Shown here: one piece after another, positions 12,151 through 50,207 of the stretch
Position numbering within the stretch: position 1 is the first letter of the stretch
How the letters are laid out: the number at the start of each line of letters is the position of its first letter
DNA from: a bacterium
Lineage (GTDB): Bacteria; Patescibacteriota; Saccharimonadia; CAILAD01; JADZBC01
Length of the DNA stretch: 64,000 nt
Reading direction: 5' to 3'
NCBI GenBank assembly: GCA_020852295.1
Contig: JADZBC010000009.1
Coordinates: 104,628-168,627 of the forward strand
Translations under genes and position numbers: made by a program
Notes under the pieces: model-generated
The model's input: the letters and a program-made list of their open reading frames with translations, nothing else
Databases searched by the model: none
What the model was told of the DNA's origin: nothing

Positions 12151-13188
12151 TCAGGCCTCGTCGGCCTGTTGCCGGCGCGGCTTGCGCGCCAGCAGGATGG
12201 ACGATCCCGCCGCAAAGAGCAGCAGGCCGCCCGCCACCAGCCACGGCGTGTAGCTGTTGGGGCCGGTGCAGGCGAGCCCACGGGGTGGGCAGTCGCTGCT
12301 CGGCCTGTTGCCGGCTGAGCTGGGGGTGGTCGTGGTCACCGCCGGGGCGGTGGTCGACGTCGTGCTCGTGCTGGTCGTCGTGGTGACGATGTCGCTCGTG
12401 CACTTGCCGTCCAGTCCTGGCGTGATCGCCCCCGAAAGGGTGATCGTGCGTCCGTCCTCGGCTTGCGCCACCAGCTGGTAGCTCGTCACCGTGGTGGCGC
12501 CGGGCAGCTGGTAGTTGTGGGCTTCAGCCGTACCCTCGCGGAGGGAGAGTCCGGCAAGGCCGGGAAAGGTCGGTGAACTCGTCACCGTCCAGTTCACGTC
12601 GCCGTTGTTGGACGCCTCCACCCGGAGGGAGTACACACCGACCGTCTCGCACTTGGCGTAGGCCTGGGTCGAACCCAGCAGCTCCGTCGGTGGCTTGACG
12701 GTCGTGGTGGTCGTCTTCATGGTGGTGGTCGTGACCGGTGGCTTGCAGCCGGTGGCCTCGTAGACGGCTTCGCGGCTGTCGCCGCCATCGCCGTCCGTCC
12801 ACTCCATGTCGAAGAAGATCAACCCTTGGCCGACTGAAGTCTTGGCGAGCTTGAGGCTCGCGGACGCGGTCTGGCCGGGCTTGACCTCGCCGAGGTTCGC
12901 GTACACCGAGGTGTCGCGATCAACGGCCGAGACGTACATCGACCGATGGTCGTTGTTGGTGAAGGAGACCTTCACCACGACCGACTGACTGCCCTCGGGG
13001 CAGCTGGCCGACGCGCTGGTTTCCACCGTCCACGCGCCAGCCACTTGGGCCGTCGCGATGGTGAACAGGCAGCCGATGAGGGCCGCCACGAGAATACGCA
13101 ATTGGCGCATTTGAAAACTCAACTTTCTCTGGGGATGTGGGGAACACCGTGGTGCGGCCAGCCGAAGCGGCGCAAACACGGAAGGCAT
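12151..13188 (-). CDS. secreted, Thr-rich cell-wall-anchored surface protein with LAxTG-type sorting signal (high-GC, foreign)
   Basis: Signal peptide. Thr-rich linkers. C-terminal LACTG + hydrophobic stretch + RKPRRQQ tail. Local GC about 68% by eye, against about 50% background. Confidence 0.7.
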   Translation of the reverse strand: MPSVFAPLRLAAPRCSPHPQRKLSFQMRQLRILVAALIGCLFTIATAQVAGAWTVETSASASCPEGSQSVVVKVSFTNNDHRSMYVSAVDRDTSVYANLGEVKPGQTASASLKLAKTSVGQGLIFFDMEWTDGDGGDSREAVYEATGCKPPVTTTTMKTTTTTVKPPTELLGSTQAYAKCETVGVYSLRVEASNNGDVNWTVTSSPTFPGLAGLSLREGTAEAHNYQLPGATTVTSYQLVAQAEDGRTITLSGAITPGLDGKCTSDIVTTTTSTSTTSTTAPAVTTTTPSSAGNRPSSDCPPRGLACTGPNSYTPWLVAGGLLLFAAGSSILLARKPRRQQADEA

Positions 13189-19515: not shown

Positions 19516-20280
19516 ATGAGCTCACCTGAGCCTGTTCTTTGTGATCATTGTAAGAAAGAGATGGAGCAGGTTCAGGCAGATTTTTGGGGTAAGAAGCCAC
19601 CAAAAAAAAAGCAGCCACGATCGACTCAGGATAGATGGCTGCTTTGGGGATCACGCATCGCGCTTGTGATGATGTTTTTTATCGCTGAAGTGATGGGTAT
19701 GTATTGGTGGGCGAGCCATAATACGCCGCAGATTGACGGCTCGGTCGGAGATCTCAATATCATAGTTCCGGCCGCCACGCTCGAAAGGGCCGATGCCGCC
19801 CCATCTGCAGCACCAAGTGGCTACAATGGTACGGTCACGGGAGGCACGTATACCCTGGCGATCCAAAAACTTGGTTTGCGAGCACCAGTTGTACCTGTTG
19901 GTAAGACGGCCAGCGGCAATATGGACACGACGCCATCGCTGTATCAGGTAGCGTGGTATAAGCTCGGTGCGCGCCCGGGCGAGAAGGGTAATGTGGTACT
20001 GGCTGCCCACTATGGCGCCCCTGATCAAGAGGGGGTATTTCGTTCAATCGATCAGCTCAACCCAGGCGATCAGCTAACCATTGTAGTGAAAGACAATCCA
20101 AACCTGACGTATCAGGTTGTTCGGAAAGAGTACTACCCAGTCGATAACGCGCCACTAAATGCGATCTTTGGACCAAACAACAAAGCAGCTCTCAATCTGA
20201 TTACTTGCGCTGGCGACTGGGATGCAGGGTCGCGCTCGTACAACAAGCGCCTCGTTGTCTATACTGAGCTGGTGAAATGA
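19516..20280 (+). CDS. sortase (transpeptidase)
   Basis: N-terminal TM. Catalytic TLxTC-type motif LNLITCAGDW. Conserved His region. Sits directly downstream of the LPXTG substrate. Confidence 0.8.
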   Translation: MSSPEPVLCDHCKKEMEQVQADFWGKKPPKKKQPRSTQDRWLLWGSRIALVMMFFIAEVMGMYWWASHNTPQIDGSVGDLNIIVPAATLERADAAPSAAPSGYNGTVTGGTYTLAIQKLGLRAPVVPVGKTASGNMDTTPSLYQVAWYKLGARPGEKGNVVLAAHYGAPDQEGVFRSIDQLNPGDQLTIVVKDNPNLTYQVVRKEYYPVDNAPLNAIFGPNNKAALNLITCAGDWDAGSRSYNKRLVVYTELVK

Positions 20281-20344: not shown

Positions 20345-20421
20345 GGCTGCGTAGCTCAGTTGGTTAGAGCGCGGGACTCATAAGCCTGAGGTCGGAGGTT
20401 CAATTCCTCCCGCAGCCACCA
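20345..20421 (+). tRNA. elongator tRNA-Met (CAT)
   Basis: 77-nt cloverleaf. Acceptor and D-arm ggctgcgtagctcagttggttagagc resemble E. coli metT. Anticodon loop cuCAUaa. Confidence 0.8.
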
Positions 20422-20914: not shown

Positions 20915-21013
20915 TCAACTGCGCCGCTGGTCGCGTAATACCAGCAAACCCCATAGTTCACAATTTGGTTGTGGCCTGTGGGGTTTTTGTATAGCACCTC
21001 ACTGCGCGGTACA

Positions 21014-22354
21014 ATGGTGCTAATGCTACAAATTCTCAACGACCATCTTGTGAAGACCGATTTGCTGCCGCGTAATGCGAAGTTAGTGCTGGCAGTTTCT
21101 GGAGGCATTGATTCAGTCGTACTACTTGATGCCCTGAGCAAACTGCAGCCTGATTGGGGGTGGCAGATTGGGGTGGCGCATCTTGATCACAACGTCCGGG
21201 ACGATTCGGCCGATGATGCACAGTTTGTCTCTGGTTTAGCAGATAGCTATGGGTATAAGTTTTTCTTGGGCCAGCTCGACGGCACGAGCCAGGATGAAGG
21301 CTCCATGCGCCAGCTTCGTTATGATTTTCTCGATGAAATTGCTGATGGCTTCGGCGCCGATTATGTCGTGACCGCCCATCACCAAGATGATCTCATCGAG
21401 ACGACGATATTCAATACGATTCGCGGTTCGGATAGACGTGGCCTCAATGCCTTGCGCCAAAAGCGGGGTCGTCTGGTTCGACCACTGCTTGGTATCGAAA
21501 AAGGGCGGATTGTCGCATATGCGCACAGCCGAGGACTGGATTGGCGAGATGACCCTACGAACCAGGATGCAAGCTATAGTCGTAATGTGTTACGCCAGCA
21601 TGTACTAACTGACGTCCCGCTATCTGCGCCACATTTTCGGAATGACTACCTCGCGAGTCTTGGCCGACTGCAGGCGGCAGATGACCGGATCAACTCTGCA
21701 TTGTCGCAAACTTTTGAGCTCATGAGGCAACCAACGAACTTGCCGGGTGCGCTTGCCTTTTCGCGGAGTGGGTTTTTGAAATTAAGTCTGGATGTACAGA
21801 AAGCACTTTTGGTTTGGATGATCGAGCAGTTGCGTCCTGGTTTTGAACTGAGCCAGGCCAATCTCAAGGCGACGTTGCGCTATATGATTTCAGCTCCGAC
21901 CGGTAGCGTTGCTAACCTGATTTCCGGGTTGCACGTCGAGCGTAGCTATGATACATTTGTCCTTGCGTTGCAAGATAGTATTGCACAGTTGACGACAACC
22001 CCAGCCACACAGATATTGCGTCCCGACAATACGCTCACGCACCTTAATCGACGTTTTCGTCTCAGTGCCCAGCCACAAGCGACAGACCACATCGCGGTCT
22101 TTGTGGAGCCACAGGAAGTATATATCCGGACTTTTCAGGCCGGTGATCGACTCAGACCGGTTGGCATGCAGGGCAGCAAGAAGTTGTCAGACATTTTTAC
22201 CGATCAAAAAATTTCTCGCATCGAACGTAAACTATGGCCAGTTATAGTAAATCGGGCCAACAAGGTTATCTGGGTTCCTGGTCTCGCGGCAGATCGTGAA
22301 ATGACTAAGGACACACCGCAGGGCAATTATCAACTAATCTGTGAGGTGTTATGA
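21014..22354 (+). CDS. tilS: tRNA(Ile)-lysidine synthetase
   Basis: PP-loop LAVSGGIDSVVL. Length about 450 aa. The start could be the ORF-track start at 20969 or the ATG at 21014. Confidence 0.8.
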   Translation: MVLMLQILNDHLVKTDLLPRNAKLVLAVSGGIDSVVLLDALSKLQPDWGWQIGVAHLDHNVRDDSADDAQFVSGLADSYGYKFFLGQLDGTSQDEGSMRQLRYDFLDEIADGFGADYVVTAHHQDDLIETTIFNTIRGSDRRGLNALRQKRGRLVRPLLGIEKGRIVAYAHSRGLDWRDDPTNQDASYSRNVLRQHVLTDVPLSAPHFRNDYLASLGRLQAADDRINSALSQTFELMRQPTNLPGALAFSRSGFLKLSLDVQKALLVWMIEQLRPGFELSQANLKATLRYMISAPTGSVANLISGLHVERSYDTFVLALQDSIAQLTTTPATQILRPDNTLTHLNRRFRLSAQPQATDHIAVFVEPQEVYIRTFQAGDRLRPVGMQGSKKLSDIFTDQKISRIERKLWPVIVNRANKVIWVPGLAADREMTKDTPQGNYQLICEVL

Positions 22355-28760: not shown

Positions 28761-29756
28761 ATGCTTATGAATGGGATACCTGGATTTGAAGCGGCTCCAC
28801 CTGAGGGGATGCATAGCCCTGCCTCTGAGGCGGAACAAGATATGCGCTCAGCGTATGAAGTTGGCCGTGCTGAATTTAGTGAAACACCAAGCGATGAGGA
28901 GCTGGCGAGAAGACTTGGTGAGGCAGAATCTACGGCTGCATTGTCTCTAGAGAAAATCGCGGCTCTTGAGCGCAGAGTGCAGGAGCTCGAAGAGGAGAAC
29001 AGGACACTTAAAGCCCAGCGCCGTGATTCACACATGGCTGATGCAGCCACAACTGCTGATCTGGAGGCCCACTCGCAGCGAGTTCACGAGCTAGAACACG
29101 AAAATCGCCGGCTCAATGAGGAGCGTTTTACCGATCAGATGACCGGACTCAAGAATAAAGCTGCGCTCGATGCCGCACTTGATCATCTCGCGACCCAGCA
29201 AAAAGCGTACCGTAGCTATGAAGAGAACCCTGATCAGTATGATCCGAGTCAGTTTGGCCAATCCGCCGAAGTGCCAGCCAAGCCCAAGAAGATAGTGTTT
29301 TTTGATGCCAATAACTTCGGCAAGATCAATAAGCATGGTCGGTTTGGGCAAAAATATGGCGATACTGCCATTGTGAATGTCGGCAATGCCATCAAGGCTG
29401 CCGGAGAAGAGTTTGGTATCGAGATTCGTGATATGTTCCGGGTAGGCGGCGACGAGTTTGTGGTACTGGTTGACGAAGGCAAGGCCGAGGACTTCATACA
29501 AAGCGTTCAGAAAAATTTTGGCATTCATATCTATAATCGTGCGGGATACCATCGGGTCAGCTTCGATGAAGAGCGCAATACCGGTGCACTCTATGATCTG
29601 GATGATGAGGCGAGTGCAATCGTGACAGTTTCTGGCAAGGCCGGCGATGAATACAATGAGGCAAGCCATTTGACCGCCGAGAAAACAATGACCAAAGGCT
29701 TGGCGCGGCGAAAAGTAGGAGAGCTCTTTCATCAATACCACAGCGGCGAAAAATAG
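28761..29756 (+). CDS. GGDEF-domain diguanylate cyclase with N-terminal coiled coil
   Basis: MTGLKNKAAL..., FFDANNFGKINKHGR..GD and an intact RVGGDEFVVL motif. Confidence 0.7.
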   Translation: MLMNGIPGFEAAPPEGMHSPASEAEQDMRSAYEVGRAEFSETPSDEELARRLGEAESTAALSLEKIAALERRVQELEEENRTLKAQRRDSHMADAATTADLEAHSQRVHELEHENRRLNEERFTDQMTGLKNKAALDAALDHLATQQKAYRSYEENPDQYDPSQFGQSAEVPAKPKKIVFFDANNFGKINKHGRFGQKYGDTAIVNVGNAIKAAGEEFGIEIRDMFRVGGDEFVVLVDEGKAEDFIQSVQKNFGIHIYNRAGYHRVSFDEERNTGALYDLDDEASAIVTVSGKAGDEYNEASHLTAEKTMTKGLARRKVGELFHQYHSGEK

Positions 29757-40597: not shown

Positions 40598-42046
40598 TTG
40601 CGACGGGTCACTTTTTGGCGCAACAATACGTACATGAAGCGATCACAACAGATAGTAGTGGCTGCACTCGGGTTTCTTATGGGTATTGCGCTGGCGCAGT
40701 TCTATCTCTTTAGTATCAATGCGGCGTGGCTTGGTGTGTTTGCCTTTGGATGTGTCGCACTGCTTGTAGTTCGGTCTCGTATTGGGCTGATTATACTTGT
40801 TGGCTTAGGGATCATGGTGGGGGTTGGTCGGTACGAGCTGTTTGTGGCGCGGCAACCCGCTCAGAGCATAGATCGTTTTTACTATGAGAAAGTAGTGGTG
40901 ACCGGCGTGGTGGACGGCGAGCCCAGCTGGGACGATAGACGACAATACATCTTTTACCTAAAAGATCTGAGGATCGATGGTGTAGCTGTGCCGGGGAGTT
41001 TGCGAATACATTCGTTGGTCGGCAGCGCCAGAGAGGGGTATCGTATCGAAACGAAAGGTAAACTCTATCCAAGTCTCGGCAAGGCTGGCGGACAACTCTA
41101 CTATGCACCGACTCTGATCGTTGATGTGCAAGTGCCTTGGTACATCACCCTCAAGCAGTCGTTTTATAGCGGCCTTCAGATTGCGCTCGGTGAAAAATTG
41201 GCAGGATTTATGATGGGGCTTTTGATTGGAGCGCGTAGCCTGATCGGTAAGGATTTGGGTGATGCCCTCAGTACGGTAGGCCTGTCGCATATGGTGGCAG
41301 TGTCGGGTTATAACCTAACCATTATTGTCGCATTGTTATATCGCATCATCGGCAGGAGGTGGCGCTGGGCTGGCTTTGTGGTGGCTAGCTGGTTTTGTGC
41401 GTTCTTCGTCATTATCAGTGGGGCGTCGGCCTCTATCGTGCGCGCGGCCGTGATGCTGTTTGTGCTGCTTCTGTGCCGACACTTTGGTCGACGACTATCA
41501 ATGCCTGCCGCGTTAGGGATCGGGGCAATCGTGACGGTTGGCTTCAACCCTGCTTACTTGCTTGGTGATCTGGGTTGGCAACTATCATTCCTGTCGCTAC
41601 TTGGCATTATTCTTTTTGCTCCGGTCATCCAAGGACTACTCCCAAAGCGATTTGGGATTATTACCGAGATAGTAGCAGTAACGCTGGCTGCTCAGCTAAC
41701 CACCGCTCCGCTCATTGCCTATCACTTTGGGGTACTCTCACTCATTGGTCCGTTGGCTAATGTGCTCATCATGCCAATCGTACCAATCTTGATGCTCGCC
41801 GGCTTTGTCGCCGGCACAGTTGGAGTAGTGTTGCCTGGCGTGGCCTTTGCGCTACTCACACCGATTCGCTTTGTGGGCGAGCAGATCATCGACCTCATCT
41901 ACTACTTGGCATCATTACGCTGGTCGCAGATTGGTGAATCCGCCTTGCCACAGCTCACCATGCTCACTGCATATAGCATACTGTTGGTATTTGCGCTCAT
42001 CGGGGCACGTCGTCGGCGTATCCAATCAGCTTCAAATCTGATCTGA
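40598..42046 (+). CDS. comEC: ComEC/Rec2-family DNA internalisation channel (no C-terminal metallo-beta-lactamase domain)
   Basis: Competence-domain motif GLSHMVAVSGYNLTIIV plus multiple TM segments. Confidence 0.8.
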   Translation: MRRVTFWRNNTYMKRSQQIVVAALGFLMGIALAQFYLFSINAAWLGVFAFGCVALLVVRSRIGLIILVGLGIMVGVGRYELFVARQPAQSIDRFYYEKVVVTGVVDGEPSWDDRRQYIFYLKDLRIDGVAVPGSLRIHSLVGSAREGYRIETKGKLYPSLGKAGGQLYYAPTLIVDVQVPWYITLKQSFYSGLQIALGEKLAGFMMGLLIGARSLIGKDLGDALSTVGLSHMVAVSGYNLTIIVALLYRIIGRRWRWAGFVVASWFCAFFVIISGASASIVRAAVMLFVLLLCRHFGRRLSMPAALGIGAIVTVGFNPAYLLGDLGWQLSFLSLLGIILFAPVIQGLLPKRFGIITEIVAVTLAAQLTTAPLIAYHFGVLSLIGPLANVLIMPIVPILMLAGFVAGTVGVVLPGVAFALLTPIRFVGEQIIDLIYYLASLRWSQIGESALPQLTMLTAYSILLVFALIGARRRRIQSASNLI

Positions 42047-46090: not shown

Positions 46091-46687
46091 GTGGTAGTGG
46101 AAAATATTGATCGCTATCCTGGCCAACCAAAAGATGAAATCACGCAGCACGTATTCTTCAAGAGTGTGTTTGCTATTACGCCTTTTCTTTTCGCTAGTCT
46201 TATCTTGGGGCTCGTGAGTCTCTATGGTATATACTACGGTGCACGCTATCAGCCAAAAGTGTCCCAGCAGGTTGCGGGCTTGCCGCTGAATGTTGCGTTT
46301 TTAAGCTTGATCATGCTCATCGTAACGGTGCTTCTGACATGGGGTGTGGTTTGGGTGTGGCGTCGCAACCGAATTGTCGTGACCAATGAGCACATTGTGG
46401 ATATTGATCAGCGGGGGATTTTTAATAAAAAAGTTTCGACACTTTCGTTGGTAAAGATTCAGGACGTGACGGCAAAGGTTAGGGGGCCATGGCAGACACT
46501 CTTTCAATATGGCACGGTTATCATCCAGACTGCTGGTGAAAAAGAGAACTTTTCTATGGATTATATTTCCTACCCGTATCAGACTGAACAGTATATCCTG
46601 GAAGTTCATCGTCAGTTTGTTCACAAAGTAAACCAAAAGCACCTCGAGCACGAGGAAGGTCACGCTCCGTCAGCGGACGATCTTTAG
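46091..46687 (+). CDS. hypothetical membrane protein (2 TM + cytoplasmic domain)
   Basis: Long ORF. Possibly a bacterial PH-domain protein; not certain. Confidence 0.4.
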   Translation: MVVENIDRYPGQPKDEITQHVFFKSVFAITPFLFASLILGLVSLYGIYYGARYQPKVSQQVAGLPLNVAFLSLIMLIVTVLLTWGVVWVWRRNRIVVTNEHIVDIDQRGIFNKKVSTLSLVKIQDVTAKVRGPWQTLFQYGTVIIQTAGEKENFSMDYISYPYQTEQYILEVHRQFVHKVNQKHLEHEEGHAPSADDL

Positions 46688-46692
46688 CCTCG

Positions 46693-47121
46693 CTACTTCT
46701 CGACTTTGACTTCGTATAGGCCGCCAGAGTCTGGCTTGGCTTGTTTGTCGTGAATATTCTCTAGCTGAGCATCAAGAACAAAGCCGGTTGCAGGATTGCC
46801 AATTGGTGTGTAGCGATAAGGGTTTTTGGTGCGTGGATCAGTCGGCAATGTCCGCAGATAGGGGGTTGCTCCCTTAGTCAGCTCATCAAGATTTTGTGGG
46901 AAATTGCCATTTTCTGCATAAAAACTCTCGAGTGCTCCTCGCAGGGTGTTTGACAGAGCAGCTTTACGCTGGGAGTCACGGGCACTAGCCGGCCCCGCAA
47001 TAATGTTTGGAATAATTAGCCCTGCCAAGATGACAGTAAAAAGACCGACAAAGACGATTTCAATCAGGGTGAAGCCTTTTTGCTGAGGAGTTGGTTTAAC
47101 AAGTGTAAATTTCATACGCAT
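46693..47121 (-). CDS. type IV pilin (prepilin with class III leader)
   Basis: KG|FTLIEIVFV cleavage and N-methylation motif followed by a hydrophobic helix. Confidence 0.75.
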   Translation of the reverse strand: MRMKFTLVKPTPQQKGFTLIEIVFVGLFTVILAGLIIPNIIAGPASARDSQRKAALSNTLRGALESFYAENGNFPQNLDELTKGATPYLRTLPTDPRTKNPYRYTPIGNPATGFVLDAQLENIHDKQAKPDSGGLYEVKVEK

Positions 47122-47145
47122 AGTGATTGTATAGCCGCCCTATTT

Positions 47146-48822
47146 TTAGGTCAATATTCCAACGCCCTGGCTGAGCAGCGACAAAATCCGACTAACCTCT
47201 TCGACGCTGGTGTCACCAAGTAGTATTTTTTTAATCGCAGCCATACGCAGACTGGTCATTCCACTGCTCTCCTCGGCATGCTGAATCTTCAAACTGTCAC
47301 CACCCCCAAGGATTGCCTCGCCGATTTTCTCGTTCATCTGCATGACTTCAAAAATTGCGCTGACTCCTATGTAGCCAGTGTTTTGGCAGTGTTCGCAGCC
47401 TGTAGCTCGATATAATTTGAGGTGGTTGATGATGTAGTTGATCGGCGGAATTTTCACGACTGGCTCGCCAGGCTGAGAGACTACTACTTGCGGTGTCGGT
47501 GTTTGGCTCAGCTGCTCTTCGGGTAACGGTTGCGGCTCTGGTGCCGGTGGTGCAGTTGGTTCATTGATGCTGCGGTTGAGTACAGCTGGATCCTCGCTGA
47601 TACGCTCGAGTATCGAGTGTCCTACGAGTGAGGACGCAGGTGGCGCAGGTATAACCAAACGGTCGAGGGCATGTGCGCGATTTGGATCAGTCGGCTGGGC
47701 GGACGGGTAGCTTTGTGGTGGCGGTTCATCTGCTGGTGCGGGTGCGGGAGCTTGTTGGGCAACTGGTTGCGGTGCCGGCGGTGGAGTTTGTTCGGGGTTC
47801 GCCGGCTCGTATGTCTTGAAGGCATCTATCTGTGGTGAGTTTTTGACGGCAGTATCAAGGTCAAAGTTTTGTCGTAAGAAGCCGATTTCTTCAGCATTGG
47901 GTGTGTATGGTTGTTTGCAAAATGGACAAAGTAGGCGCAACAATCGCTGGTTCACGACGACTAGTAAGTTGGAAGCTATCTGAAAGGGCTGAGCCTTGAA
48001 GCCGCGCATAAAACCAACTGTCTCTCCGATCGACGAAGTGAACATGCCAGCTAAGATCTGATGATCGGATGTGGTAGCATCAAGGGCTGTCGTGACGGTG
48101 GTACCATCAGTGATTTGGCTGAGCATGATAGTCTGCTTGCCTTGCGCGACAAGCACTTTGAGGCCTTCACCTATGCTGCTACCCTTATCGACATTGACCT
48201 TGTTTTGGCTAACACCAATAAGCTTTGATTTTACATCGAGCTCAAGCGTGGTGACGGGGGTCTGCTTCGTATCAATTGTCGAAATGATGCTATACAGGGT
48301 CGTGGTCTTACCGGACTTCGGTGGTCCAATCACTACAAGGAGTCCACGTCCTCGTGACAGAAAATCACTAACAATATCTTGCTCCTGTTGGCTCATACCA
48401 AGTCGCGCCAAAGGAGAATTGATTTGTCCCTCGGTCTGCAGTTGGAGCAATATACTATCGCCGTTGACAGTTGGCATTACCGAGACATTGACACCGATCT
48501 TCTTATCTCCAACCACGAGTTCAAAGTGGCCCTCGACCTGTTGATTGCTCAGGATGCTGATCCCGGCATATTGTCGGGTAGCGCGATCAATCGTGGTGAA
48601 CTGGCTGCTCGAGAGTACGCCCATATCACGTAGCTCGAGTCCGATGCGAAAGCGCAGCATGACTTCGCCAGCGCTCGGGGTAAAGTGAACATCGCTCGCG
48701 CCAAGCACGACTGCTTGCTGCAAAATTGCTGGCAGGGAAGTGATAGCAATACGAGAGTTGGCGGTGGTACTGAGCGGGGATGGTGCAGCACTATTTCCAG
48801 ATGGGCTTTGTGCCTGATTCAT
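47146..48822 (-). CDS. pilB: type IV pilus assembly ATPase PilB/GspE family with about 150-aa Pro-rich insertion
   Basis: Walker A GPPKSGKTT. Asp/His boxes. Tetracysteine motif (CPFC...CEHC) split by a PAPQP-rich low-complexity segment. Confidence 0.85.
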   Translation of the reverse strand: MNQAQSPSGNSAAPSPLSTTANSRIAITSLPAILQQAVVLGASDVHFTPSAGEVMLRFRIGLELRDMGVLSSSQFTTIDRATRQYAGISILSNQQVEGHFELVVGDKKIGVNVSVMPTVNGDSILLQLQTEGQINSPLARLGMSQQEQDIVSDFLSRGRGLLVVIGPPKSGKTTTLYSIISTIDTKQTPVTTLELDVKSKLIGVSQNKVNVDKGSSIGEGLKVLVAQGKQTIMLSQITDGTTVTTALDATTSDHQILAGMFTSSIGETVGFMRGFKAQPFQIASNLLVVVNQRLLRLLCPFCKQPYTPNAEEIGFLRQNFDLDTAVKNSPQIDAFKTYEPANPEQTPPPAPQPVAQQAPAPAPADEPPPQSYPSAQPTDPNRAHALDRLVIPAPPASSLVGHSILERISEDPAVLNRSINEPTAPPAPEPQPLPEEQLSQTPTPQVVVSQPGEPVVKIPPINYIINHLKLYRATGCEHCQNTGYIGVSAIFEVMQMNEKIGEAILGGGDSLKIQHAEESSGMTSLRMAAIKKILLGDTSVEEVSRILSLLSQGVGILT

Positions 48823-48884
48823 AGCTTCAATTATACCATAAGCACATTTATACGACTTGAAGAACTTACGCTTTACTTTCGGTA

Positions 48885-50207
48885 ATGAGTGGTATTAATA
48901 TTTTGTTTATGAACAAGGGGGTTCAACTACTCATCATCTTCATTGTGGCACTAGTTGCTACAGTCATTGCACCAGTTGCTGCATGGGCCAATGATGCGCC
49001 ACGGCTACTCATTACAGAGATATCGCCAGGCAGTAAGGATAGCGCAACCGACGAATTTGTAGAAATCTACAATCCATCCAGTGTGACAATTGATTTGTCA
49101 GCGGATAAGATTCAATACAAGTCAGCTTCTGGCAAAACCTGGACTACCAAAGCCAAGATTGACGATGGCACCGAACTGGCGCCAGGTCAGTACATGGTGC
49201 TTTCTACTAAAGATAATTTTACTGCGCATTTACAGAGTGGAATGGCCCAAGCAGCTGGAAATATTCGTCTGGTTGATGCGGAGGATACGGTGCTCGATCA
49301 GGTCGGCTGGGGTACGGCTGATGCGGCGCTTGTAGCGCCAGCAGAGCCTGTCGTAGTGGGACAAACAATATCTCGTAAATTGATCGACAGTAAATATGCT
49401 CAGAGTCAGAATAACCTTGGTGATTTTGTGGCTGGCGAGCCAACGCCGGGGAATCCAACCAAGGTTGCTGCTCAATCTGAGCTTGCGTCTGTGGCAAGCG
49501 ATTTCTCGCTTGATATCATCATCAATGAGCTGTTACCCGATCCAACCAGTCCTCTGACAGACAGCGAAGATGAATTTATTGAGCTCTTTAACGATGGCTC
49601 AGGGGCGCAGGACCTGACCGGCTATAGTCTGATGGATGCGTCGGGGCATAGCTTTAAGCTTGATGGCCGCACTATTGGCGCGGCTGGCTATTTGGTAATT
49701 CGCTCGGCGGAGTCAAAAATCAGCCTCAATAACGATGGCGATACGGTGAAGCTTCTTGCGCCAAACGGTGAGACTATAGATATAACTGAAGATTACGGCA
49801 AAGCAAAGTCAAATCTGAGCTGGGGCCGTACAGGAGATGGTTGGTCTTGGACAAATGCACCAACGCCTGGTTCGGCTAATGCTTCTGTGCTGATTGAGCA
49901 AGCTGATTCGGCAAATGCAGCAAAAACTACCACTAGCAAGAAGTTGGCGACCAAGAAGACAACTGCGAGAACCAATACAGCGCGCGCAAAAGCCGCAGCA
50001 AAGCCGGCCAATACTTCACAAATAGGAACGGTCAGCAATGAGCAGGGCCCCAATGTACCTGCCTCCAATTGGTCGTGGTTGCTGATTACTCTGGGAGTCG
50101 CTACCATAGGGTATGGAATATATGAATACAGACCAGAAATTACAATTTTCTTCCACAAGCTCCGAGCAAAGCTTGGCCTGGGGCAAAAAGCTCGGCCAAA
50201 ATCTTAA
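48885..50207 (+). CDS. lamin-tail-domain (LTD) protein, two LTD repeats, C-terminal TM
   Basis: LLITEISPGS...EFVEIYNP and IIINELLPDP...EFIELFNDG are LTD signatures. Basic Ala/Lys-rich linker. C-terminal TM helix. Confidence 0.7.
   Translation: MSGINILFMNKGVQLLIIFIVALVATVIAPVAAWANDAPRLLITEISPGSKDSATDEFVEIYNPSSVTIDLSADKIQYKSASGKTWTTKAKIDDGTELAPGQYMVLSTKDNFTAHLQSGMAQAAGNIRLVDAEDTVLDQVGWGTADAALVAPAEPVVVGQTISRKLIDSKYAQSQNNLGDFVAGEPTPGNPTKVAAQSELASVASDFSLDIIINELLPDPTSPLTDSEDEFIELFNDGSGAQDLTGYSLMDASGHSFKLDGRTIGAAGYLVIRSAESKISLNNDGDTVKLLAPNGETIDITEDYGKAKSNLSWGRTGDGWSWTNAPTPGSANASVLIEQADSANAAKTTTSKKLATKKTTARTNTARAKAAAKPANTSQIGTVSNEQGPNVPASNWSWLLITLGVATIGYGIYEYRPEITIFFHKLRAKLGLGQKARPKS

Follow-up and report, generated by a model that had tools for sequence, protein, structure and literature searches.

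A predicted PilB/GspE-family pseudo-ATPase and a GspG-like pilin at a putatively reduced second type IV pilus locus of a Saccharibacteria-like genome

The locus and its genes

The window analyzed here (the whole 64 kb stretch of DNA) contains, on its minus strand, a prepilin gene directly adjacent to a gene for a PilB/GspE-family protein (hereafter, the window PilB), which is separated by a short spacer from a divergent gene for a protein with two lamin-tail domains (LTD). The original prediction had placed all of these genes correctly, together with a ComEC gene about 5 kb away (Table 1).

Table 1. Features of the locus (positions in the window)
Feature	Position	Strand	Basis
ComEC, 482 aa, only DUF4131 and Competence domains	40598..42046	+	Competence 3.6e-45
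bPH_2 membrane protein, convergent with pilin	46091..46687	+	Pfam bPH_2 6e-9
Prepilin, 142 aa	46693..47121	-	class III signal ...QQKG/FTLIEIVF, Glu at +5
Window PilB, PilB/GspE-family predicted pseudo-ATPase, 558 aa	47146..48822	-	Pfam T2SSE, PDB alignments, motif table
Second zinc dicysteine CEHC (C476, C479)	47386..47397	-	motif table
CM-loop insertion, residues 303-475	47398..47916	-	motif table, AF2
Conserved short motif LDRLVIPAPPASSLVGHSILERISEDPAVLNRSIN, residues 386-420	47563..47667	-	common to relatives, low pN/pS
First zinc dicysteine CPFC (C299, C302)	47917..47928	-	motif table
Degenerate Walker B/catalytic site, residues 232-239	48106..48129	-	IMLSQITD vs. consensus VMVGEIRD
Walker A GPPKSGKT, residues 166-173	48304..48327	-	matches GxxGxGK[ST]
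Divergent intergenic spacer, 62 bp, window PilB/LTD gene	48823..48884	.	ORF coordinates
LTD protein, 440 aa, two lamin-tail domains	48885..50207	+	Pfam LTD 6e-36, two stretches

The prepilin carries a class III signal peptide (KG/FTLIEIVFVGLFTVILAGLIIP), in which G-1, F+1, E+5 and the hydrophobic alpha1N helix are all present, and its G/FTLIE-type motif occurs only once in a six-frame search of the entire 64 kb window. NCBIfam comparison yielded weak GspG/ComGC-type matches (GspG at 3e-10, under cut-off; TIGR01710 score 40 vs. a cut-off of 89), while a profile of its orthologues matched the structures of PulG (5WDA, 4e-14) and of soluble EpsG/GspG domains (5e-5 to 1e-3), and its alignment with pilins from syntenic loci revealed the common elements RD.QRK, LE.YY..N..YP and DP...Y.Y. 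By these similarities, it is predicted to be a GspG-like (T2SS-pseudopilin-like) pilin and the positional orthologue of the pilin of type IV pilus (T4P) locus two (TM7x PilJ-type). Purifying selection maintains this gene (dN/dS = 0.02–0.04), as it does the window PilB (see below). Genes for PilC, PilM, PilN, PilO, PilT, PilD and a second prepilin are absent from the 64 kb window, where ComEA, ComFC and DprA were not seen either, the Com system being represented only by ComEC and one pilin.

The LTD protein has the layout of a surface protein: a signal/TM segment at the N-terminus, a linker rich in K/T/A and a TM anchor at the C-terminus. Among the compared loci, its gene (dN/dS = 0.12–0.32) adjoins TsaE in L001, L002, L021, L022 and L030, and is absent in L029, L015 and L019. 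In fuller loci, RecA/RecX or TspO/VTT genes intervene between LTD and PilB; thus, their adjacency in the window is a by-product of deletions, and the LTD protein is a syntenic neighbor, not demonstrably part of the system. On its right-hand side, the locus has the bPH_2 gene as a conserved border (same place in L001, L002, L015, L022, L026 and L027). The 5 kb between ComEC and the pilin/PilB pair are occupied by YebC, RuvC, RuvA, RuvB and membrane genes, and this gene order is a conserved housekeeping synteny, found with complete and incomplete sets of pilus genes.

The original prediction had united these genes in a DNA-uptake ensemble. Such an ensemble would comprise a competence pseudopilus powered by the window PilB, an LTD protein that binds extracellular DNA and ComEC as the importer. 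This interpretation is in line with the ComGC/GspG-like character of the pilin, the proximity of ComEC, the position among recombination genes (RuvABC in the window; RecA/RecX in L015, L019 and L030) and the ComEC-dependent natural competence of Saccharibacteria (PMC10633639), and PilJ, the TM7x counterpart of the window pilin, could not be deleted (PMC11623550) and may still have a part in uptake. Nevertheless, TM7x mutants of the second pilus system (T4P-2), pilB2 included, transform at wild-type rates (PMC11623550), the window is devoid of ComGB/PilC, the window PilB lacks the residues needed as a power source (see below), and the adjacency of ComEC and of the not always present LTD gene is generic synteny. 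Moreover, in S. epibionticum ComEC is dispensable but T4P genes are essential (PMC10633639), so that the two functions separate. Taken together, a DNA-uptake role appears very improbable to us.

Catalytic site and zinc loop of the window PilB

The assignment of the window PilB to the PilB/GspE family, already made in the original prediction, is supported by matches to Pfam T2SSE (PF00437; 3e-55, two stretches) and to the PDB structures of EpsE, PilB and PilF (1e-38 to 1e-47), in which residues 25–312 and 468–546 align with nothing between them. The protein comprises N2D and CTD, which form the T2SSE fold (AF2 pLDDT > 90 in the core), and a predicted zinc CM domain. No match to the N1D/MshEN domain (PF05157) was found in Pfam; indeed, the ORF begins 19 residues ahead of N2D, with only 62 bp upstream. 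Scores against NCBIfam equivalog models fall far under the cut-offs for PilB (TIGR02538, 211 vs. 676) and GspE (TIGR02533, 217 vs. 630), and the ComGA score (NF041000) is 106 vs. 300. The name TadA/CpaF, given by PGAP to MCC7289071.1, was rejected, as the CM tetracysteine missing from the TadA type is present here; the NCBIfam matches at E<=0.01 include no TadA model, and no tad genes are located near the window PilB within the 64 kb window. For the window clade, the PGAP name “TadA” is misleading, and so is an unqualified “PilB ATPase”. The degenerate catalytic site, the loss of the N-terminal domain and the lack of platform/alignment genes beside the window PilB had gone unnoticed in the original prediction.

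Catalytic positions were compared in a motif table built over 394 homologues (numbering of G. metallireducens PilB), with the roles of residues in PilT-like ATPases taken from the literature (PMC5424180; PMC5061722). Five of the six residues invariant across these ATPases are replaced. Both Arg fingers are lost (R271 to N112, R286 to Q127); the Mg-binding E357 of the Asp box is K198 (ELDVKS vs. EDPVEY), with the first Glu (E194) retained; the catalytic E395, which follows the atypical Walker B, is Gln236 throughout the window clade; and the gamma-phosphate His of the His box, H420, is F261 (Y in P0002), with H254 (= H413) retained. The catalytic Glu is kept in 373 of the 394 homologues, with exceptions mainly in the clades of the window and of L015. 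Walker A preserves Lys172 and Thr173, with an additional Lys169 where canonical proteins have Gly. In the Pfam and PDB alignments, IMLSQITD is paired with VMVGEIRD and SDHQILAGMFTS with TGHLVMSTLHTN. The adenine/ribose-contacting R441 of EpsE (PMC5061722) corresponds to V487, which makes nucleotide binding doubtful. The replacement residues are themselves conserved within the window clade (SQIT/SD, ELDVK, GMF/Y), and the two degenerate clades share conserved P-loop Lys/Thr, loss of the hydrolysis residues and a G-to-K change at P-loop position 4. [quoted passage not shown]

Given the replacement of five of six invariant catalytic residues, the window PilB is very probably unable to hydrolyze ATP. 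That it still drives a minimal pilus of its own, as an assembly ATPase of unconventional chemistry, would agree with the intact Walker A and zinc motifs and the confidently predicted fold; however, mutation of the residues that are here replaced together abolishes the activity of PilB/PilT/EpsE (PMC5424180), and the locus is without a platform protein, which leaves this explanation exceedingly unlikely.

The four predicted zinc-ligand Cys of the CM domain are all present and invariant, yet the two dicysteines are 173 residues apart, vs. 27–41 in GspE-type references, 64–74 in canonical Saccharibacteria PilB and a median of 35 among homologues (n = 394), with CXXC-X21-40-CXXC as the published range (PMC5061722). 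Within this insertion, residues 303–339 are helical and equivalent to the normal loop, residues 340–457 are disordered and Pro-rich, and residues 458–475 form a strand returning to the second dicysteine. Pro accounts for 21% of the 173-residue stretch and for 26% of residues 340–457, and the insertion is not a DNA tandem repeat. AF2 pLDDT values of 38–52 across residues 340–460 predict disorder. The Pro-rich arms vary in length (pN/pS of 0.17–0.6) around a constrained 35-residue core (pN/pS of 0.04–0.15), whose consensus, SILxRIxxDPxhhxR, is also present in P0276 (from a related lineage, where this intact PilB2 is encoded inside a full operon), P0277 (two copies), P0281 and P0282, and is restricted to these PilB genes in a six-frame search of ~510 kb of sequence. 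A possible mimicry of the PilN N-terminus by this motif was tested with a negative outcome. Taken together, the insertion is predicted to be a Pro-rich tether around a conserved motif. The corresponding part of the original prediction, a Pro-rich insertion between CPFC and CEHC that is atypical for PilB/GspE and may act as a flexible tether or interaction region, is borne out by the reference alignment that delimits it, the predicted disorder and its presence in relatives; overall, the original observation is confirmed and its interpretation is partly supported.

Reduction and selection across relatives

Full PilB2-PilC2-pilin-PilM2-PilN2-PilO2 operons are present in L030, L021 and L019/L020 at the same position as the window pair, between TsaE(/LTD) and bPH-RuvB-RuvA, and match locus two of TM7x (PilB2, PilC2, PilM2/N2/O2, RecAX and a single pilin, PilJ; PMC11623550). 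This points to the window as a reduced locus two and, judging by gene order, to the pair as a remnant of the second T4P operon in a Saccharibacteria-like genome. Other reduced PilB and pilin pairs occur in L001, L002, L026–L029, L022/23, L024, L025 and L014/15; PilC2, PilM2, PilN2 and PilO2 are absent from all reduced loci compared, and the pilin gene immediately follows PilB in every one of them, in two independent lineages. The window locus and T4P-2 of TM7x have in common the position between TsaE-TsaB-RNaseY and bPH-RuvB-RuvA, a homologous GspG-like pilin and a same-family ATPase with an enlarged CM loop (173 aa in the window vs. 64–74 aa); they differ in that the former is without PilC2, PilM2, PilN2 and PilO2, has no adjacent RecA/RecX, and encodes a PilB that lost N1D and the catalytic residues.

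In reduced loci, PilB has evolved much faster than housekeeping genes. The window and L022 share 68% identity in RNase Y but only 31% in PilB; between L015, with a reduced locus, and L030, with a full one, identity is 80% in RNase Y and 82% in RuvB, but only 35% in PilB; two intact PilB2 proteins (L021 vs. L019) are 58% identical. The window RNase Y is 57% identical to that of L015 and of L030 alike. Single-gene NJ trees, together with identity matrices, suggest that the locus was reduced at least twice independently, each time with decay of the catalytic site and faster evolution. P0281 (in L022) belongs to the same reduced locus yet retains the catalytic Glu, Arg fingers and Asp box; a pilin can thus be paired with a PilB that is possibly still active, and ATPase activity may have been lost later, as a step specific to certain lineages.

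The window PilB is under purifying selection with dN/dS of 0.05–0.09 (0.085 for L001-L026, 0.054 for L002-L001; 0.07–0.10 for RuvB), with pN/pS of 0–0.10 in its core and an intact ORF in all >10 contigs, which span 31–99% identity; the dN/dS of PilB in the second degenerate clade (L015-type) is 0.16. Acceleration seems to have come first and stabilization after. Small CPR genomes quickly purge dead genes. The possibility that the window PilB is a non-functional relic awaiting deletion, with only the pilin being of importance, would fit the accelerated evolution, the already deleted partner genes and the stepwise catalytic decay from intact P0276 via P0281 and P0282 to P0277 and the window clade. 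Nevertheless, it is hard to reconcile with such purging, the intact ORFs, the dN/dS of 0.05–0.16, the constraint on both degenerate core and motif, and the clade-wide conservation of the replacement residues, and we find it very doubtful.

The strong purifying selection and the conservation of P-loop Lys/Thr in both degenerate clades, despite the lost hydrolysis residues and with the shared G-to-K change, could also reflect recruitment to another process, as a pilus-independent nucleotide-binding signaling or scaffold protein, for which the exopolysaccharide signaling of M. xanthus PilB provides a precedent (PMC5544727). That protein has a role beyond powering assembly, but takes on this additional task while being a fully active motor, whereas the window PilB appears to be non-motor only. 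The pilin gene invariably next to PilB in reduced loci argues for a pilin-linked role, and the lost EpsE R441 contact speaks against nucleotide binding; hence, this alternative is considered unlikely.

A possible role in pilin assembly

With moderate confidence, our best reading is that of a reduced T4P locus two whose PilB is kept by selection as a pseudo-ATPase partner of the GspG-like pilin. The pilin would be processed and polymerized by the other pilus machine of the cell (T4P-1, encoded elsewhere), the presence of T4P-1, PilD or relocated PilC/PilM copies being assumed from other Saccharibacteria (PMC11623550); the authors of the TM7x study have suggested that the T4P-1 machinery may let T4P-2 pilins leak through (PMC11623550). 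The window PilB could serve as a non-catalytic partner, either occupying the platform/stator as an adaptor or placeholder, or acting as a switch that binds nucleotide. Its zinc CM domain would be situated on the ring exterior, with the ~118-residue disordered Pro-rich tether projecting from it and presenting the SILxRIxxDPxhhxR peptide for docking to a partner. FtsZ features a long variable disordered C-terminal linker with a short conserved terminal peptide docking onto partners; its D-I-P-x-F-L-R is loosely similar to the D-P-x-h-h-x-R core of our motif, an analogy only, as there is no homology and the latter is internal, within a zinc-finger loop. A more specific and rather speculative version envisions an ATPase-dead adaptor ring, whose tether motif docks the stator/platform (e.g., FtsA-like PilM1) and which hands in the pilin or gates its polymerization; Saccharibacteria would have arrived at this solution at least twice, while fusing their two pilus systems.

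To our knowledge, PilB/GspE ATPases are regarded as obligate motors, and a limited literature survey yielded no natural member without the catalytic Glu, Arg fingers, Mg Glu and His-box His that is yet under purifying selection beside a pilin. The closest parallel is V. cholerae PilT, which remains functional in retraction when ATPase-dead by cooperating with PilU (PMC11656802), i.e., a hydrolysis-incompetent ATPase of the same family as a structural adaptor. In that case, the Walker mutants were engineered and the ATPase serves retraction, whereas the loss reported here is natural, fixed and recurrent, in an extension-type (CM-domain) ATPase.

If confirmed, these findings would mean that selection can maintain the PilB scaffold for a function other than ATP hydrolysis, and would illustrate the way in which ultra-small episymbionts reduce two pilus systems to a single one. 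The insertion identifies the zinc CM loop, which faces outward, as a place to which long tethers and docking peptides can be added, and this may be useful for understanding the recruitment of PilB cofactors.

Catalytic residues of the window PilB

The elements of the original prediction taken as facts (a type IV pilin, a PilB, a protein with two lamin-tail domains (LTD) and a ComEC) were all confirmed by ORFs and Pfam, and their positions are collected below together with other features of interest. By sequence comparison, the match of the PilB-family protein (hereafter, the window PilB) to solved PilB/EpsE structures is unambiguous, with EpsE, PilB and PilF aligning to its residues 25-312 and 468-546 and no alignment between. 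The PGAP name of this protein, "Flp pilus assembly complex ATPase component TadA", was rejected as it possesses the CM domain, the zinc domain of PilB/GspE with two dicysteines.

Features of the window and of related loci (window positions unless a locus handle is given)
Feature	Position	Strand	Remarks
High-GC island	12151-13188	-	61.5% GC vs ~50% background; encodes a 345-aa secreted Thr-rich protein
tRNA (CAT)	10503
tRNA (CAT)	18159
Sortase gene	19516-20280
tRNA (CAT)	20345-20421	+	candidate tRNA-Ile2
tilS	20969-22354	+
Partial GGDEF match	28761-29756	+	profile positions 30-95/161, 1e-9
ComEC	40598-42046	+	DUF4131 + Competence domain
Prepilin, 142 aa	46693-47121	-	class III signal QQKG|FTLIEIVF
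Promoter-like site	47126-47154	-	TTGACC-17-TACAAT, 10/12 matches
Window PilB, 558 aa (MCC7289071.1)	47146-48822	-	Pfam T2SSE 3e-55, two stretches
P-loop of window PilB	48304-48327	-	GPPKSGKT
LTD protein	48885-50207		two LTD domains, 6e-36; divergent from PilB
PilB of second degenerate clade	L015:9479-11239		P-loop GPGKSGKT
PilB P0277	L025:1529-3511		P-loop GPISSGVT
Divergent PilB tract	L026:2193-3377		compared with L001

As judged from these alignments, the ATPase of the window PilB is CATALYTICALLY degenerate, a feature overlooked by the original prediction. Relative to the family consensus (PDB and multiple alignments), it carries IMLSQITD vs. VMVGEIRD, SDHQILAGMFTS vs. TGHLVxSTLHTN, TLELDVKS vs. 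TxEDPxEY, GVNVS vs. DxRVS and GDSILLQLQ vs. GExVVxRIL. Conservation in the family is complete for the Walker motifs, E395 (catalytic Glu), the Arg fingers R271/R286 and an Asp-box Glu and high for the His-box His, E357 being the Mg-coordinating Asp-box Glu and H420 the His contacting the gamma-phosphate (PMC5424180; G. metallireducens PilB numbering). R271, R286, E357, E395 and H420 correspond in the window PilB to N112, Q127, K198, Q236 and F261, respectively, and EpsE R441, the Arg contacting adenine/ribose (PMC5061722), corresponds to V487. Residues assigned to hydrolysis by homology have been lost from this protein, while Walker A K172/T173, E194, H254 and all four Cys are kept. Neither Pfam nor alignment revealed an N-terminal MshEN/N1 domain in it, only 62 bp being present upstream of the start, and its NCBIfam equivalog scores all amount to about one third of the cut-offs.

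In both fully degenerate clades, the Gly at P-loop position 4 (canonical GPTGSGKT) is replaced by Lys, possibly offsetting the absence of the Arg fingers and of the Mg site. A partial GGDEF match is also present in the window, in the same genome as this PilB devoid of the c-di-GMP-binding MshEN domain.

Insertion, relatives and selection

The insertion placed by the original prediction between CPFC (C299/C302) and CEHC (C476/C479) was recovered, the two dicysteines being 173 residues apart, with Pro accounting for 21% of the stretch between them. This spacing has a median of 35 in 394 homologues (27-41 in GspE-type proteins, 64-74 in canonical Saccharibacteria PilB) and a published range of X21-40 (PMC5061722), so that the insertion lies outside the reference range and is not a common linker of reference PilBs. 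In an AF2 model based on a 66-sequence alignment, the core has pLDDT > 90, the helical residues 303-339 correspond to the normal CM loop, and residues 340-460 have pLDDT of 38-52. This low-pLDDT region contains a motif, V[IV]P.P...SIL[ED][RK]I..DP..[LIV].R, which is conserved among window-clade proteins and present in the homologous PilB proteins P0276, P0281 and P0282, as well as in two copies (SILxRIxxDP, in the CM loop) in P0277; six frames of ~510 kb of sequence contained no instance of it outside these PilB genes. Together, these results present the insertion as a predicted disordered tether with a conserved motif, supporting the suggested flexible tether or interaction region. The CM domain occupies the outer side of the hexamer, and residues of its loop can be exchanged for one another (PMC5061722), which accounts for the tolerance of long insertions in this loop. 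Moreover, the tether and motif are older than the catalytic decay, as both are carried by P0276, a PilB2 that is itself intact and belongs to a full operon.

Two other explanations were rejected: a recent DNA repeat expansion as the origin of the insertion, with TRF giving only a 22-nt trace, and mimicry by the motif of the PilM-binding N-terminus of PilN, which in locus L021 begins with a canonical MINLLP unrelated to the motif.

Not unique, the insertion is a lineage-specific feature: it is common, together with every degenerate position, to all five close relatives (P0001-P0005, 60-99% identical to the window PilB), after which identity drops to 32%. Clade-specific peptides, searched against a single genome for each GTDB species, gave no close relatives, only canonical PilB/GspE of 26-34% identity along with the syntenic Saccharimonas loci L014/L015. 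In an HMM search with a clade profile, the window clade formed a single cluster among 1.84 billion cluster representatives, followed by ~1000-aa tandem double-PilB fusions and then by the motif-bearing P0276, P0277, P0281 and P0282; when the motif-bearing proteins themselves served as the profile in a third word-index search for homologues, the matches were fusions and generic PilBs, none of them a new carrier of the motif. The fusions (P0150-P0152, P0166, P0261-P0274, P0410-P0417) contain two complete T2SSE modules in tandem, score above single-domain PilBs in profile searches and, where source names are available, come from Moranbacteria-type Patescibacteria.

The estimated dN/dS of the window PilB (0.085 for L001-L026, 0.054 for L002-L001, these being related contigs) is similar to that of RuvB (0.07-0.10). 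Regionally, pN/pS is 0-0.10 in the degenerate core, 0.03-0.04 in the C-terminal part and 0.04-0.15 in the 35-residue centre of the insertion, compared with 0.17-0.6, with indels, in its Pro-rich arms. These codon-based estimates indicate purifying selection and argue against a decaying pseudogene. The second degenerate clade is also constrained (dN/dS 0.16).

Between the near-identical strains of L026 and L001, the greater part of the 3' half of PilB (end of the CTD, insertion and C-terminus) shows 11-35 differences per 200 nt, falling to 8 in the last interval and to 0 over the downstream ~1,600 nt (pilin, bPH, start of RuvB); dS is 0.25 for PilB and 0-0.04 for flanking genes. Such a pattern suggests either a tract of recombination or a hypervariable hotspot with the insertion at its centre.

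Locus architecture and history

The PilB ORF is located 24 bases upstream of the pilin ORF, and a promoter-like site within the last PilB codons, just upstream of the pilin start, suggests that the pilin may also be transcribed alone. Its NCBI annotation, "hypothetical protein", is misleading. Six frames of the 64-kb window contain no second class III signal motif, and no other prepilins or T4P genes are present there, including PilC, PilM, PilN, PilO, PilT and PilD.

A full version of the locus is found in L030 (Ca. Saccharimonadales), where RNaseY-TsaB-TsaE-LTD-x-RecX-RecA is followed by PilB2-PilC2-pilin-PilM2-N2-O2-x, after which come a 240-aa gene occupying the place of bPH, then RuvB and RuvA and, at a greater distance, RuvC and YebC; gene order in L021 is very similar. 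The "T4P locus two" (T4P-2) of TM7x, to which the oral-type L019/L020 corresponds, comprises PilC2, PilB2, PilM2/N2/O2, RecAX and a single pilin, PilJ (PMC11623550). Only PilB and pilin occupy the same position in the window and in L001, L002, L026-L029, L022/23, L024, L025 and L014/15, and the pilins of full and reduced loci are homologous by alignment and GspG-like (NCBIfam, orthologue profile vs. structures). Therefore, the window locus is very probably a reduced T4P-2 operon. An unannotated 238-aa secreted protein is encoded between PilB and pilin in L025.

L015 (reduced, with a degenerate PilB having Arg at the catalytic position) and L030 (full, with intact PilB2) share 80% identity in RNase Y and 82% in RuvB vs. 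only 35% in PilB; the window RNase Y is 57% identical to both and 57-68% identical to those of Saccharimonas and Saccharimonadales contigs. These identities, along with the synteny, were used to assign the source organism to Saccharibacteria. The divergence of intact PilB2 proteins is comparable to that of housekeeping genes (58% for PilB vs. 63% for RNase Y in L021-L019) and degenerate PilBs fall to ~31-35% identity. Taken together, the housekeeping closeness of L015 and L030 and the equal distance of the window from both suggest two or more separate occurrences of reduction with catalytic decay and accelerated evolution, with independence judged from single-gene trees. The decay is graded, from the intact P0276 through P0281 (GELSD, Tyr at H420), P0282 (both His-box histidines missing, Thr at R271) and P0277 (without even the Walker A Lys) to the window clade with its N112/Q127/K198/Q236/F261-type losses.

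DNA uptake and possible function

The grouping of these genes as a DNA-uptake ensemble is unsupported. ComEC, YebC, RuvC, RuvA and RuvB form a conserved housekeeping synteny around the locus, full or reduced, and the LTD gene is variable: it adjoins TsaE in several lineages, has other genes between it and PilB in fuller loci and was not found in L029, L015 and L019. In TM7x, T4P-2 mutants including pilB2 show wild-type transformation frequency, pilJ not being deletable (PMC11623550), and in S. epibionticum ComEC is needed for transformation and not for growth, T4P genes being essential (PMC10633639). The window ComEC has only 482 aa (470 in relatives), without a C-terminal metallo-beta-lactamase nuclease domain, and the TTG start of its ORF differs from the deposited protein.

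Elsewhere in the window, the 345-aa Thr-rich protein has no Pfam match and ends with LACTG, a hydrophobic helix and a basic tail, by which it is likely a sortase substrate. The third of three CAT-anticodon tRNA genes within 10 kb precedes tilS by ~550 nt, a distance that includes a single short ORF, and so probably encodes tRNA-Ile2 (lysidine) and not tRNA-Met.

Overall, the pilin might be assembled by the other pilus machine of the cell, with the window PilB in a non-catalytic role, be it adaptor, placeholder or nucleotide-binding switch, in which its tethered motif would dock a partner; as a complete account of how the locus works, this mechanism is tentative and rather doubtful. Precedents are provided by an ATPase-dead PilT, which still supports PilU-driven retraction (PMC11656802), and by PilB of M. 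xanthus, reported to act in signalling (PMC5544727).
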